This document shows positions 49,720 through 55,163 of a stretch of DNA of 64,000 bases, piece after piece. Each line of letters opens with the position of its first letter. Positions within the stretch are counted from its first letter, which is position 1. The notes beneath the pieces were generated by a model that searched no databases, was not told where the DNA came from, and was given only the letters and a program-made list of their open reading frames with translations. The position numbers were made by a program, and so were the translations under genes. The stretch comes from an uncultured Parachlamydiaceae bacterium. Its GTDB lineage: Bacteria > Chlamydiota > Chlamydiia > Chlamydiales > Parachlamydiaceae. Where the stretch lies: contig CAVULX010000003.1 in the NCBI GenBank assembly GCA_963742415.1, forward strand, positions 832,001-896,000, read 5' to 3'.

Positions 49720-50886
49720 TTATAAAAAGTAAAGATATGTCGAGAAAGCAAACGCAGCAAAAACAGGCACTTTGATCGGTGTAAAATTTTTAAGGCGATA
49801 AAGAATATTTAAGACTGTAAGGATAATCAAGCCTGGATAACAAATTTGTAAAATCGGCGAAAGAAATTTGGAAATCCCTGTAAATTCAAAAGTCGATACA
49901 AAAAATGTCAAAAGCAATGACCCAAGCAGCGTCCATTCGTAACTTATTTTTTGCTTAAAAACCTCTTTTTGAATGAAGTCTGTAAAGGCAGATATCAATG
50001 CGATAGCTGTTGTTAAACAGGCCAAAGCAATGGTAATGCATACAAGAATTCCCGCCTTAGCGCCTGCAATCCTCATCGTAATAGCTGGGAGCAATTCATC
50101 TTTTCCACTGATATCGAGATAACTTCCATGAAAAGCTGCAAGGTAACTGAACCCTACATAAATGAGGGCAAGTAAACAAGCTCCAACAATGCTAGCGCGA
50201 AAGGCTGTTTTTATATAACTATTCGAGGAGTGCTCAGTGGATTCATCTTTCTGTAAGCGCACTCTCAAAAGATTTAATATTGTCGATGAAAAGAAGAACG
50301 CCGCTAATAAATCCATCGTATTATAACCTTCCTTTAGTCCATGCAAAAACATGGCGGAATTGGTTTCATTGACGTTCTGCATATTTGGTTCAGCAATTAG
50401 CCCCATGATAATGATAGAAATAAGAGAAATTAACAAGGCCGGGGTCAAAACCCATCCTAGAAGAGTTAAGATTTGATTTTTTCTAAAGGTGAAAAGAAAA
50501 ATAGTTCCACAGGCTAACGCACTAAACAGAACAGGAGGTATGTTCATAAAAGAACTTTTCAATGTTGTGTAAGATAGTGCAATACACCTCGGAGTAGACC
50601 CTAAGGGGCCCAAAAGGCTAATGATGATGAGGGCAAGCAAAAATCCGGGGATCTTTCCTAACCTTCCAAAAAATTGCCGGTAATTCCCATCAAACAAAAT
50701 CATGGCAATGACACCGGCTATAGGCATGATAGCAGCTGTGAGGATCAACCCGGACATCGCATAAAAGTTTTTATCTCCCGCATATTGCCCGACAGCTAAC
50801 GGAAAAATAATATTGCCTGCTCCAAAAAACATCGAAAACATGGCTAGCCCGATTGCTAGTGATTGTGATTTTAATAATTTATTCAT
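49720..50886 (-). CDS. brnQ: Branched-chain amino acid transport system II carrier
   Basis: GLAMFSMFFGAGNIIFP, GPLGSTPR, GWVLTP, EGYNTMDLLAAFFF, LACLTTA; ~12 TM segments. Confidence 0.95.
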   Translation of the reverse strand: MNKLLKSQSLAIGLAMFSMFFGAGNIIFPLAVGQYAGDKNFYAMSGLILTAAIMPIAGVIAMILFDGNYRQFFGRLGKIPGFLLALIIISLLGPLGSTPRCIALSYTTLKSSFMNIPPVLFSALACGTIFLFTFRKNQILTLLGWVLTPALLISLISIIIMGLIAEPNMQNVNETNSAMFLHGLKEGYNTMDLLAAFFFSSTILNLLRVRLQKDESTEHSSNSYIKTAFRASIVGACLLALIYVGFSYLAAFHGSYLDISGKDELLPAITMRIAGAKAGILVCITIALACLTTAIALISAFTDFIQKEVFKQKISYEWTLLGSLLLTFFVSTFEFTGISKFLSPILQICYPGLIILTVLNILYRLKNFTPIKVPVFAAFAFSTYLYFL

Positions 50887-51014
50887 GGTTTTTATTTATT
50901 TACCTCTATTGTGGTTTATTTCCATCGCATGCCACAGGCACGATGAATTAGGTCAGGTTGACTCTGCTGACTTTGTTTTTGTTAGTTCGAATGATGATGT
51001 ATGGGTGGAATAAA

Positions 51015-51080
51015 TTATATGTGCGCGAAGCGCACGACGACGACGGCAGACACAACCACGGCAACAAAAGAGGATAGCAT
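51015..51080 (-). promoter_or_regulatory. Putative valine-rich leader peptide (MLSSFVAVVVSAVVVVRFAHI) / attenuator of brnQ
   Basis: 8 Val codons in an 11-codon stretch, 128 nt upstream of brnQ; coding region complementary to 50903-50927. Confidence 0.7.
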
Positions 51081-51230
51081 AGTAATAGAGCCTTCATGCT
51101 CCAATGCTTCGCTAATAATGTTACTATTTTTCTTTAAATAAGACATAAAAAAACAAAATTCCCCTTTTGTGAAAGTAACATATTTCACCCATTTTTTGCA
51201 AACCAAAAAATGAAGAGCTTCAATTTAGAG

Positions 51231-51266
51231 AAAAACAAAGCTCAGGTTAAAGTTTGCCTGAGCTTT
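51231..51266 (-). terminator. Intrinsic terminator of the TauD-like gene
   Basis: AAAGCTCAGG-N10-CCTGAGCTTT followed by GTTTTT on the minus strand. Confidence 0.75.
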
Positions 51267-51275
51267 ATTCCAGGA

Positions 51276-52877
51276 TTATTGAACCATTGAGGCTAAAATG
51301 CGGCGTTGGCCGACGTAAGGATTGCGTCCATGGCATGCTTTGCGGTTGTGCAAAAGCAACAGATCCCTTTCTTGCCAGTCGAATTTGACTGTGACCCCAT
51401 CCAGAGCATCGTAAATTTCATAGACAACATCTTTGGGGATCTCGGTCTCATCTTCAAATTCAATTTCATACTGTCTGGTTGAAGGGGCAATATAAAGGAG
51501 GTTAGCCATTAAGTGATTGACCCAGCCATTGCGAATACGGGGGTTTCCATGATAAAGATAGGCTTGGTTGAACCAATATGGGTGGTCAAAATATTCGTCG
51601 GGGCCCTGAGTTGCCGGAACATGCCGGATGACCTCTATCCAATCGCCGGTCCATTCGCATTCATATCCTTTTCGTTCACATATTCTGGCGACTTCATCTT
51701 TATCTGTTGTTTCAAAAGCTTGAGGCCATGTTTTATGCGTCGGATTTACACGAGAGAAAAAATTCCCTTCAGAAGGATGATGAGTAATATAATTGAGGGT
51801 TTTCCCATAAAACATATTCCAGATGTGGGGCTTCTTCATGATCTCTCTAGTGACATCTTCGGTTTTTGCGAGAATTGTTTCCCCTGAACCTGGATCCGGG
51901 GCTATTTCACAATAGAAGCAAATATAGTCTACAGGATTAAGAGTGCAGCTCAGCTCATTATGCAGAGGGATTTTGAATTCGGGAGGCGCTTCTGTAGACG
52001 TATACACCCCTTGGGTTATTCTTTTTCGGGAACCTTCCCCTTTATAATCGATCAGTTCCCGTCCTGTAATTGTTCGAACAATTGCACCGAAATCGTCTGC
52101 ACTATTAATGGGGAAGTCCCGCAATAAAATTCCTCCTGCGGAATCGATGTAAGATTTTAGTTCTTGCTGATGGATTTCGGCCCATATTTTAAAATTCTCA
52201 AGGGTGATATCTTGGCTTTTTGGGGAGAGGACAAAAGGGAACATTTCTCGATTAACAAAATAGCCGTTAACTTCATCATTTACAAAATCAAGGGAACCGA
52301 GGGAAGACAAACTTGATTTTATTTGTGGTTCCTCTTCAACAGAGTCTCCCACACACACGTCCACAATAGAGGTTTCCATTTGGGGTGAATTTGCTTCAGA
52401 AAGTTGTGTCGATTGATCCTCGAACTGAAGTTTGGCAAGTACATCATGGACTTGAGACTTATCGTAAGAAGAAACTTCTGTGGTTTGATAAAGGGCCTGA
52501 AAAGAAAATGGGGATAAATCGAGCGACGTTAACTCACAGATGTTTAATTTTGAACTTCCCTCTTGAGATAAAATTTGAGTGCATTGACCGTCGTTTAGGC
52601 ATAAGATGACACCCTGAATATCTTCTTCCGATGACCCTACAAAAAGGAGGGTTCCCGGCGGCAAGCCATCGGCTCCAATCCACTCGGGTGTTGAACCATC
52701 TAAATAAGTCAGGGTGTATTGACCTTTCATCCTGTTCTTTTCCACGTTTCGATAGAGTTTCCTAATCAGTTTTTGACTATCATAAGAGGCTTGAATCGTA
52801 TAGGAATCCACTTCTTGAATAGTTGTGTCATTTGAACCTGTAAACCCTATTATCGTGGCAAGCAAAACCATCATCAT
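51276..52877 (-). CDS. TauD/TfdA (SyrP-like) Fe(II)/2-oxoglutarate dioxygenase with ~200-aa N-terminal extension
   Basis: GGAGG RBS; GILLRDF, VYTSTE.PP...IPLHNE, WFNQ, W...DLLLLHN...HGR.PY.G.RRIL; hydrophobic N-terminus. Confidence 0.85.
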   Translation of the reverse strand: MMMVLLATIIGFTGSNDTTIQEVDSYTIQASYDSQKLIRKLYRNVEKNRMKGQYTLTYLDGSTPEWIGADGLPPGTLLFVGSSEEDIQGVILCLNDGQCTQILSQEGSSKLNICELTSLDLSPFSFQALYQTTEVSSYDKSQVHDVLAKLQFEDQSTQLSEANSPQMETSIVDVCVGDSVEEEPQIKSSLSSLGSLDFVNDEVNGYFVNREMFPFVLSPKSQDITLENFKIWAEIHQQELKSYIDSAGGILLRDFPINSADDFGAIVRTITGRELIDYKGEGSRKRITQGVYTSTEAPPEFKIPLHNELSCTLNPVDYICFYCEIAPDPGSGETILAKTEDVTREIMKKPHIWNMFYGKTLNYITHHPSEGNFFSRVNPTHKTWPQAFETTDKDEVARICERKGYECEWTGDWIEVIRHVPATQGPDEYFDHPYWFNQAYLYHGNPRIRNGWVNHLMANLLYIAPSTRQYEIEFEDETEIPKDVVYEIYDALDGVTVKFDWQERDLLLLHNRKACHGRNPYVGQRRILASMVQ

Positions 52878-52992
52878 AAAAACCTCCAAAACATACTGTC
52901 AAATTCAAAAAAAAATTAGCGAGAAGAATGTGTTTTATGCGTAAAAGCGATAAAAGTCAAGAAGGCATATGAAATTTTATAATATATCTTTT

Positions 52993-55163
52993 TCAAGGGG
53001 ATTTCTTCAGCCTTAAAGCATTCAGAATGACTGAAACGGAGCTGCAAGCCATGGCGGCGCTGGCAATCATGGGGTTTAAAAGCAGGCCGAAGAATGGATA
53101 TAAAAGGCCTGCAGCTATAGGGATTCCGGCCATATTGTAGATGAAGGCAAAAAACAGATTTTGCCTTATATTCCGCATAATGGCTTTACTTAAGCGGATG
53201 GCTCTTACAATTCCTGTAAGGTCCCCCTTGACTAAAGTGACCCCAGCACTTTCCATAGCCACATCGGTGCCTGTGCCCATGGCGATCCCGACATCGGAAA
53301 CAGCTAATGCGGGCGCATCATTAATTCCATCTCCTGCCATTGCGACAATGAGGTTTTTATTTTTGAGATTCTGAACCAAAACATTTTTGTCTTTCGGATC
53401 AACGTTGGCGTGAACGTCGTCGATGTTCAATTTTTCAGCAACAGCTTGTGCAGCCTGCACATTATCTCCTGTCAACATGATGACCTTAAGGCCGAGCTGA
53501 TGCAGATCGGCAATGGCATTGGGGGTGGAAGCCTTGATGGGATCAGCGACCGCGATGCAGCCGATAGCTTTCCCATTGGCGGCTACAAAAATGGCTGTTT
53601 GAGCTAGTTCTTGAGGAATTCTTGCTTGAGCTTGCAAATCGGCCATTCCATCGACCATGTTCGCTTCTCCATGAAATCGACCTTGCCGATCAAGATCTTT
53701 CGATTTTCTACGATCCCTGTCACTCCTCCACCTGTGATCGAATTAAATTGCTCGACTTGAGGAATACTTAAATTTCTTTTTTGAGCTTCTTTTAAGATAG
53801 CTGCAGCGAGGGGGTGCTCGCTATTTTTTTCAACTGAGGCAGTCAATCTTAAAACTTCATTTTCTTGCCAATGGGGCGCTGTGATAATCTGGGTGACTTT
53901 GGGCATCCCTTCAGTAAGGGTTCCCGTCTTATCCATAACAATGACATTGACCTTTTCAAGTTTTTCAAGAGCTTCCCCATTTTTAATTAAAATCCCCATT
54001 TCTGCCCCTCTGCCTACTCCGACCATTACAGACATTGGCGTTGCCAAGCCTAAGGCGCAGGGGCAAGCGATGATCAGCACGGCAACAGCGTTGACTAAGG
54101 CATAAACAAACCGGGGTTCAGGCCCGAAAACTCCCCAAACAATAAATGTAATCAGCGCAACTAAGATGACGGCAGGAACAAAATAACTTGAAATCTGATC
54201 GGCGAGTCTTTGAATGGGTGCTTTACTTCTTTGGGCTTCGGATACCATCTGCACAATCCTTGATAACAAGGTTTCACTGCCGACCCGTTTAGCTTCCATT
54301 AAAAAACTTCCGGTTTGATTGATTGTGCTTCCGGTGACTAGATCGGGAGCTTTTTTTTCAACAGGAAGAGGTTCCCCAGTAATCATCGATTCATCCACAA
54401 AGCTCGAACCCTCGAGGACGACTCCGTCAACCGGAATTTTTTCTCCAGGCTTTACTCTCAAAAGATCTCCCACTTTCACATGATCAATGGAAACCTCTTG
54501 CTCATGTTGTTCGTGACCCAGACCTATGGCAACGAGATGAGCTGTTTTAGGGCCCCGCCCAAGCAGGGTTTTAATTGCTTGACTAGTCTTGCTTTTGGCC
54601 TTAAGTTCCAAAACCTGTCCTAAAATGACAAGCACTGTAATTACAGAAGCTGCTTCAAAGTAGATGAAAAGCTCTCCTTTTTCTTTGAAAGAATCTGGAA
54701 ACAGGTTAGGAAATACAACAGCGATGGCACTGTACAGATAAGCCGTTCCCACACCTAAGGCTATCAAAGAAAACATGTTTAAAGAGCGGTTCAACAATGA
54801 ATGCCAAGCTTTTTCAAAAAAGGGCCATCCAGCCCAAAACACTATAGGGGTGCATAAAATGAATTGCAGCCAGCGTGAAAGGGGGGCGGAGATCTGTGAT
54901 AAATAGGGGACATCGCGGCTGGCTGCTAATATCAAGACAGGGATCGCCAGAGCGGTTCCGATCCAAAATCTGCGCAGCATGTTCCGAAATTCTGAATCGT
55001 CTTCTTTTGCGGTCATGACGATAGGCTCCAAAGTCATTCCGCAAATGGGGCAATCTCCAGGATGGTCTTGCTGCACTTCGGGATGCATCGGGCAAGTGTA
55101 AAGGGCAGCCGTTGAAACATTCACTTTTTGGGGGTCTTTTTGACAACAATTCGGATGATCCAT
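52993..55163 (-). CDS. copA: Copper-translocating P1B-type ATPase, split by one frameshift near 53660
   Basis: YTCPMHPEV...[36 protein letters not shown]...IP, MACSS. Confidence 0.92.

Follow-up and report, generated by a model that had tools for sequence, protein, structure and literature searches.

Two described systems come closest to the element reported here. In the account of Canestrari et al. (10.1101/834739), ribosomes stalled on the leaderless polycysteine short open reading frames (sORFs) of mycobacteria block an RNA structure that sequesters the ribosome-binding site (RBS) of the next gene. The LEU element upstream of actinobacterial leuA, as presented by Seliverstov et al. (2005; PMC1262725), has a codon run that pairs with the Shine-Dalgarno (SD) box and forms a basal stem around a compact structure; in the same source, its authors doubted that the leader is translated, citing mutation data, and proposed a protein binder. 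Here we describe a candidate leader upstream of brnQ, the gene of a branched-chain amino acid (BCAA) carrier in an uncultured Parachlamydiaceae bacterium. It is located on the minus strand of a stretch of 64,000 nucleotides (assembly GCA_963742415.1, contig CAVULX010000003.1, positions 832,001 to 896,000), which is called the window in the following and supplies the position numbers. With a probability of about 0.5, we read it as a leader-peptide sensor of valine supply, or more broadly of BCAA supply, that would control brnQ after transcription.

Judged by the account named above, the mycobacterial sORFs and the valine leader both place a short ORF, with a run of codons for a single amino acid, at the 5' end of the mRNA, and both follow a logic that is shared by several loci. 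They differ in the amino acid (valine or BCAA), in the target, which is an importer here, and in the phylum. The valine leader also has a near-invariant hairpin that abuts the codon run and holds or precedes the stop codon, and its leaderless start is a prediction made from sequence alone (10 of 24 instances). The LEU element, as far as its description goes, resembles the valine leader in the candidate leader peptide, in the basal stem between regulatory codons and SD box and in the lack of a terminator. Its inner structure, however, is a pseudoknot and not a 6-bp hairpin, and no sequence similarity was seen between the two.

The classical leader-peptide transcription attenuators are trpL, hisL and ilvL/ivbL. 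Like these, the valine leader is a short ORF with clustered codons for the amino acid that is transported or synthesised, its regulatory codons lie in or beside the 5' arm of a hairpin, and its stop codon falls in the loop or on the 3' side. In contrast to them, and also to an isoleucine-type leader of the same genome, it comes without a terminator of hairpin and U-tract (0/37 instances) and without a third segment (complement in 4/37). In ermC and cat, ribosome arrest in the leader ORF changes access to the downstream RBS, and in tnaC access to a Rho loading site; these systems are governed by a drug or by free tryptophan, which act on the nascent peptide, whereas the likely signal for the valine leader would be the supply of charged tRNA at repeated codons. 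The best fit among these designs appears to be translational attenuation by ribosome dwell time, with the Val-codon segment as the anti-RBS strand. Literature searches aimed at a chlamydial brnQ leader or attenuator yielded no account of such an element, and neither did Rfam: searching our own region at E-values up to 10 returned only noise far below the gathering scores, and the sole match among 18 related loci at the gathering threshold was an unrelated tRNA.

The valine-rich frame and hairpin upstream of brnQ

The features of the locus are listed below in the order of transcription.

51231..51266, minus strand: intrinsic terminator of the upstream gene (51276-52889), -19 kcal/mol, 8-bp core stem followed by the T-run TTTGTTTTT
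51177..51206, minus strand: weak candidate promoter, inferred only; TTGGTT (51206-51201), 18-nt spacer, TATGTT (51182-51177)
51015..51146, minus strand: long leader ORF, 43 codons plus stop (MSYLKK...VVVVRFAHI), with in-frame ATGs at -111 and -45 from the hairpin
51080 (ATG) to 51017-51015 (TAA), minus strand: short leader ORF MLSSFVAVVVSAVVVVRFAHI, the 21-codon form of the first-pass annotation, starting at an internal ATG
51041..51073, minus strand: 5' strand of the long-range pairing inside the upstream ORF (uORF); CCUCU, GUGGUU and CCGUCG (51073, 51059, 51046)
51033..51065, minus strand: regulatory Val codons, eight of codons 6-16 in the short form, ending in GUC GUC GUC GUG
51021..51035, minus strand: conserved RNA hairpin GUGCGC-UUC-GCGCAC, -9.6 kcal/mol, unique in the genome
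50946..51014, minus strand: spacer behind the uORF stop, poor in G and rich in C/A/U; its first 60 nt contain 14 C and 5 G
50923..50945, minus strand: local hairpin competing with the innermost long-range helix for CGAUG, part of the minimum free energy (MFE) fold, -10.8 kcal/mol alone
50903..50927, minus strand: 3' strand of the long-range pairing; CGAUGG, AACCAC and AGAGG (50927, 50916, 50907), including the SD-like AGAGG of brnQ
50886-49720, minus strand: brnQ, 388 aa, BrnQ-family branched-chain amino acid carrier (PF05525, E 3.6e-61)

The intergenic region 5' of brnQ comprises 389 nt and is insulated from the upstream gene by the terminator at 51231..51266. A first-pass annotation of the window had named this terminator, the downstream BCAA importer and a GC-rich uORF with eight Val codons in 11 positions. 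The stem-loop with its T-run and the PF05525 match bear out the first two, and the uORF is present as described in composition. Windows of 11 codons with at least eight Val codons occur at three places among 5,380,268 (six frames of the 2.69-Mb genome); the other two, which look like off-frame readings of other sequence, are not leaders. The GC content amounts to 53% in the uORF and to 66.7% in its Val/hairpin part, compared to 33.7% in the remaining intergenic region. The length of 21 codons needs revision: because the ATG at 51146 and the first codons behind it align with the two closest relatives, L112 and L085, the uORF probably has 43 codons. The most conserved feature of the leader, the hairpin at 51035-51021, had been missed by the first-pass annotation. 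Its 5' arm consists of the last Val codon and the Arg codon, the three codons behind them complete it, and the uORF stops 6 nt past its 3' arm.

To place the leader in its relatives, we combined protein and pattern searches. A BrnQ protein search of 41 related genomes found homologues in 35, and 30 loci, the best match per genome, were analysed. Both uORF and hairpin precede brnQ in 12 of these 30, including all eight with at least 60% identity to the BrnQ of the window, and the 12 uORFs, all in the same orientation, end in ...VVVVR-x-AH-x-stop or ...VVVR-stop. The pattern GTGCGYN{3,4}GCGCAC is found once in our genome and in 109 of 401 sampled genomes of the order, far above a reversed control. 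With GTN required before the hairpin, 24 of 30 fetched sites (23 as fetched, plus L032 read on its other strand) are followed at a distance of 54-149 nt by a brnQ homologue in the same orientation, with 34-100% identity to the BrnQ of the window; the other six are two copies of a repeat family in one genome (G252) and four sites resembling coding sequence. Six of 40 further sites fetched without the GTN requirement are upstream of brnQ as well, with the runs LVCVR, SSFVR, FFLVR, VIIVR, IRIVR and VILVR. A search of metagenomes for BrnQ gave 15 loci, ten of them with the leader or a variant, one being L112, the 92% relative. The brnQ-linked leaders belong to at least 14 family codes of the order; in the family f35, with genomes of 1.0-1.4 Mb, both fetched pattern matches were away from brnQ. 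A sequence scan for GTCGTCGTGCGCNNNGCGCAC found brnQ adjoining in 1 of 119 loci among the matches listed (L137, a Chlamydiae metagenome-assembled genome), and since these matches are swamped by high-GC genomes (median GC 72%), it says nothing on the distribution outside chlamydiae.

From these searches, a set of 32 non-identical, brnQ-linked instances was compiled, and a set of 37 was used for the pairing and terminator tests, with gene starts assigned by script. Three loci that carry the leader (L012, L037, L056) were left out of the set of 32 by script filters on the brnQ start. Two loci were dropped before the tests on 37 instances, namely L091, in which brnQ is 430 nt distant, and L107, which lies at a contig end and lacks an ATG, and three further rows remained unused (L103, a duplicate of L002; L110, a duplicate of L109; L108, with a degenerate hairpin).

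The pattern searches also returned sites of other kinds. Four of the 40 sites (L069 1351-2542, plus strand; L072 731-1650, minus strand; L074 1351-2321, plus strand; L078 1351-2304, plus strand) show the leader design before genes other than brnQ: a hydrophobic uORF ending in LILVR, VLIVR or LLIVR, the same hairpin as before brnQ and a stop in or just after the loop. The genes behind them encode one mitochondrial-carrier-like protein (PF00153) and three proteins of 235-247 aa without a Pfam match. In G252 (L036, L060), about 40 copies of the palindrome are part of a repeated element away from brnQ (…PHVPSVVR[FM]AH[TA]LGHAGL… in one frame). The sequence GTGCGTTATAGCGCAC recurs in L065, L070, L071, L073, L075 and L076 (several genomes of one genus code), near a second partial copy, and the copy in L075 directly precedes a gene for a protein with an N-terminus like that of helix-turn-helix regulators; the sequence may represent an unrelated operator.

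The conservation of the leader has the signature of a translated frame. In all 32 instances, the frame that reads GUG CGC in the 5' arm contains an ATG 10 or more codons further upstream without an intervening stop, compared to 3/32 and 0/32 for the other two frames. Counted from the first base of the hairpin, the stop of the Val frame is confined to +6, within the loop (10 instances), +15 (6), +18 (15) and +21 (1), and the next stops in the two other frames are scattered from +7 to beyond +1000. The information content 5' of the hairpin has a period of 3 nt: T dominates codon position 2 back to about -30, G prevails at position 1 of the last four codons and position 3 is variable. Among relatives, the Val codons vary synonymously (GTC, GTG, GTA, GTT), and the codons before the hairpin specify Val or, in distant relatives, Ile and Leu. 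The pattern that retrieved 24 of the 32 instances requires Val at codon -1, which biases its frequency at this position; in the 12 instances found through BrnQ alone, Val is present there in 10. As in classical attenuators, regulatory codons are clustered in a leader ORF (8 Val in 11 codons; frame in 32/32). Taken together, the BCAA-rich uORF that the first-pass annotation had proposed to look for upstream of related brnQ genes is conserved. An amplification of the signal by rare codons was considered and rejected, as GTC makes up 30% of the Val codons in long ORFs and the tRNA-Val species GAC and UAC are both present.

The predicted promoters would place the uORF within the brnQ transcript. 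Sigma-70-like sites were predicted at 27 positions upstream of the uORF (4.6/kb), at one inside it (0.3/kb) and at five in the spacer (1.6/kb). A promoter site is present in 24 instances, and in 10 of them its -10 box is separated from an in-frame ATG by only 6-8 nt, which would put the transcription start on this ATG; these uORFs are therefore predicted to be leaderless. One of the 10, L051, has a perfect TTGACA-17-TATAAT. Our own window is not among them: the -10 box of its weak candidate promoter ends 30 nt before the first ATG of the uORF, and that of the better promoter in L112 (TTGAAA-17-TATTTT) at a similar distance, 26 nt before.

Predicted pairing with the brnQ ribosome-binding site and the lack of a terminator

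The MFE folds of most instances pair the SD/AUG region of brnQ with the segment that immediately precedes the hairpin, for example GUCGUC with GACGAC beside the SD box, or CU-rich codons with AAGGA. Duplexes of the 30 nt before the hairpin with positions -25 to +10 of brnQ reached -12.5 kcal/mol for cognate and -9.5 kcal/mol for non-cognate combinations (0/10000 permutations). The cognate RBS was the best partner in 8/37 instances, and 15/37 passed at 5% and 9/37 at 1% against dinucleotide-shuffled RBS windows. Using partition functions, 9.55 base pairs were expected between leader and RBS, compared to 6.02 with a shuffled leader segment (Wilcoxon 1.4e-5, uncorrected for relatedness). The folds of L003, L044 and L087 show the conserved hairpin stacked onto the 5' side of a basal stem that closes on the SD box (z -4.0 to -4.5; 0/200 shuffles each). 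In L112, a fold of basal stem and hairpin covers both SD and AUG (z -2.35).

The leader lacks an intrinsic terminator. A terminator-like hairpin with a T-run between the conserved hairpin and brnQ was found in 0/37 instances, which agrees with the first-pass annotation. The conserved hairpin itself is followed by at least five T in the next 8 nt in 11/37 by a loose criterion, our own leader included; a proper U-tract directly after the stem was present in none of the 37, and the consensus tail is A/U-mixed. Nor did the 37 instances show an antiterminator partner, that is, a third segment pairing with the 3' arm, as a spacer complement of at least 5 nt to this arm exists in only 4/37. Without terminator and antiterminator partner, the leader is not a classical attenuator, and this reading was rejected. 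The organism does possess such attenuators. Our genome has three brnQ paralogues, and the conserved hairpin precedes only the copy in the window. A second paralogue (38% identity) is preceded by an Ile-rich uORF, MFCSYHIEMITIQIIVIHAQWRCGPM (MITIQIIVIH...; G000:C3:556216-556136, minus strand), which is followed by CCGCAC...GGUGCGG and nine U, a textbook attenuator with terminator. The same design occurs in the relatives L244 and L246-L249, sometimes as two in tandem (…IRIIVAIHVKTRCGP…). Since this Ile leader shows that the organism uses terminators, their lack in the Val leader is a real difference. The arms of the Ile type (GGUGCGG/CCGCACC) resemble those of the Val leader (GUGCGC/GCGCAC), with a common core of GUGCG/CGCAC.

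From the conserved frame of translated type, the codon bias, the hairpin, the lack of a terminator and the cognate complementarity, all of which are observed, we infer translation, stalling, a direction of regulation and a role for the hairpin as follows. Ribosomes would translate the short ORF with which the brnQ mRNA opens, in many relatives probably from the first base of the transcript, with Val (Ile/Leu in distant relatives) as the last codons before the hairpin. The same RNA stretch would pair with the brnQ RBS and form a basal stem with the hairpin stacked on it. When Val-tRNA is plentiful, ribosomes would pass the codon run, reach the stop codon within the hairpin or shortly behind it and be released; the stem would re-form and brnQ would be poorly translated. 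Rho may then cut transcription short, and polarity on the untranslated brnQ may reinforce this. If Val-tRNA runs short, a ribosome would dwell on the Val codons and cover the anti-RBS strand together with the 5' arm of the hairpin, and the RBS would stay open. Given its fixed position, the hairpin would stand at the ribosome entry channel during decoding of the Val codons and re-form once the ribosome leaves. It may act as a fast-folding cap that resets the stem, or as a speed bump at the entry channel.

Several results weigh against this mechanism. For the family, the complementarity is no better than in shuffles in 22/37 instances, and the segment before the hairpin finds its best partner in overlap with the RBS in 27/37 compared to 19.5 expected, a moderate excess only. 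Folding with a ribosome footprint blocked on the Val codons, a check that the first-pass annotation had suggested, had a weak effect: the unpaired fraction of the RBS rose from 0.38 to 0.42 (p 0.06), and accessibility increased by more than 0.1 in 8/37 instances and decreased in 3. All instances come from related genomes, so the p-values overstate. Moreover, translational attenuation leaves the near-invariance of the hairpin arms unexplained.

The individual case of our own window is weaker still. The first-pass annotation had proposed a two-state RNA switch of three nested helices and a competing local hairpin. These elements exist, the local hairpin is part of the MFE fold and two of the three 5' segments are made of Val codons (GUG GUU; GCC GUC GUC), but their pairing is not significant on its own: the three-helix duplex (-22.3 kcal/mol) was equalled by 20/200 shuffled partners, and the cognate pairing had a z of -1.2 (34/300 shuffles). 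Fewer pairs were expected than with shuffled segments (2.07 vs 2.35), and the enforced pairing, at -41.1 kcal/mol, lies 3.1 above the MFE of -44.2. With a modelled ribosome on the Val codons, the opening of the SD box changed modestly from 0.36 to 0.40-0.57. The spacing from SD to ATG is long (~16 nt), and no consensus promoter was found in 50700-51500. The fold of the whole leader is not unusually stable either (z -0.93, 34/200 shuffles). The earlier proposal that stalling on Val codons frees the RBS of brnQ is supported in part, by the conserved frame, the BCAA codons beside the hairpin, the lack of a terminator and the cognate complementarity of the family, and not by the switch in this window, while the footprint test had only the weak effect given above.

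Alternative readings of the leader

The same sensor of dwell time on Val codons could have a transcriptional output, which we consider unlikely. Rho would load on the G-poor, C-rich leader and end transcription upstream of brnQ or within it, unless this is prevented by a ribosome that has stalled or by renewed translation of brnQ; alternatively, the hairpin and its A/U-rich tail would be a pause or weak termination signal. Rho is encoded in our genome, and the C-rich, G-poor tract after the leader stop, already seen by the first-pass annotation, is a property of the family: the first 60 nt past the hairpin contain 12.2 C and 5.2 G on average, and the 14 C and 5 G of our own leader are matched by only 0.96% of the genome windows. 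After a short C-rich patch, a YACAUYUU box stands 18-25 nt past the hairpin in 9/37 leaders, compared to 0.8 in shuffles (L002, L004, L013, L015, L034, L045, L085, L087 and L112; AUACAUCAUCAUU at 50998-50986 of the window). The C-rich patch is short, however, and a ribosome stalled before the stop codon would stand upstream of the spacer and leave the site of Rho loading uncovered. The loose T-rich tail in 11/37 hairpins, our own included, would suit a pause or weak termination, but it is missing from the other 26, and a proper U-tract immediately past the stem is missing from all 37. The hairpin would be masked equally by a stalled ribosome and by one that runs through, and could not by itself discriminate between the two states. 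Finally, the cognate complementarity to the RBS is left unexplained by a purely transcriptional output.

Less probable again is a reading in which the GTGCGC-N3-GCGCAC dyad binds a dimeric protein, either as a DNA operator, which might lie between the two boxes of a promoter with the TATAAT behind the dyad as its -10 box, or as an RNA hairpin bound by a regulator, with the uORF being secondary. The arms GUGCGC/GCGCAC are identical in 30/32 instances from very divergent genomes, while the loop is free (TTC, TAG, AAA, ATC, AGC, TGC, TAA or TAGC), which is unusual for a purely structural hairpin, and TCGTCG-18-TATAAT scores 9/12 in both our own leader and L112. The variants point in the other direction. 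GTGCGT..GCGCAC (L013), GTGCGC..GCGCGC (L104) and GTGTGC..GCGCAC (L109) retain pairing through G.U pairs only on the sense strand, L102 has rearranged yet complementary arms (GCGTGC-CCC-GCACGC), and the loop length is 3 or 4 nt; L015 has one mismatch. Because of the G.U variants, the complementary arms of L102 and the variable loop length, the evidence favours a hairpin that acts as an RNA structure over a DNA operator, with weak statistics owing to the small number of arm variants; a protein that binds the RNA may still be involved. We also rejected ATATAAT after the hairpin as a -10 box: its TAA is conserved only in those instances in which it ends the uORF, and instances with a stop in the loop depart from the -10 sequence. 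We read this motif as stop codon context and not as a promoter. An operator would explain neither the open frame in 32/32 instances, nor the 3-nt periodicity, nor the position of the promoters upstream of the uORF.

That the uORF encodes a functional small hydrophobic peptide, such as a membrane partner of BrnQ or a type I toxin, instead of a sensor is very improbable: many versions do have 15-17 hydrophobic residues before the Arg, but the N-terminal part is conserved neither in length nor in sequence, several peptides have charged residues in the middle (e.g., L046, L106, L107, L051, L053), the residues after the Arg are lost in the 10/32 instances that stop in the loop, and conservation is limited to the codons adjoining the hairpin.

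Upstream of the locus, on the minus strand at 52993-55163, two overlapping ORFs of the window (53604-55163 and 52993-53658) resemble the N- and C-terminal parts of one heavy-metal P-type ATPase, which suggests a frameshift or an assembly error.

Leaders of the brnQ paralogues and amino acid import in environmental chlamydiae

Two biosynthetic enzymes, ketol-acid reductoisomerase (KARI) and IlvD, were not found in our genome, which is 84% complete, and valine therefore probably has to be imported. As reported in PMC11140210 with reference to Braun et al. (2008), an excess of Leu, Ile, Met or Phe blocks the growth of C. trachomatis by competition at BrnQ, and valine relieves this block.

The third brnQ paralogue (42% identity; leader at G000:C1:42054-42155, plus strand) has a further leader with a Thr-rich uORF (…STRTATATTGRGRTSTR), followed by a conserved CCCGCTYRRATYC box with a long-range pairing partner near the gene start. 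This leader, which is also present in L240, L113 and L114, may be of a threonine type. Three differently biased leaders on three paralogues hint at a specialisation of the carriers for their substrates. A wider proposal, which we put forward tentatively and with the odds clearly against it, is that environmental chlamydiae run a ribosome-read 'ribulon' for amino acid import, in which each BrnQ-family paralogue and some unrelated carriers would have their own amino-acid-specific leader (Val, Ile, Thr). The Val type would then be a distinct terminator-less class, and its invariant hairpin would take an active part in the sensor, as a speed bump, as a reset device or as the place where an unknown factor docks, beyond serving as a structural cap.

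Few regulators are known in chlamydiae, and the ways in which these bacteria sense host-derived nutrients are poorly understood. If a leader-peptide sensor of valine supply does control brnQ, a conserved cis-acting valine/BCAA sensor on an importer would directly link the amino acid supply of the host to chlamydial uptake and would go together with the known growth block by competition at BrnQ, which valine relieves. Terminator-less leader peptides acting by RBS unmasking have so far been known from cysteine genes of mycobacteria and suggested for leuA of actinobacteria; the valine leader would bring them to transporters and to a further phylum, and it would add an unexplained invariant hairpin to this leader design.

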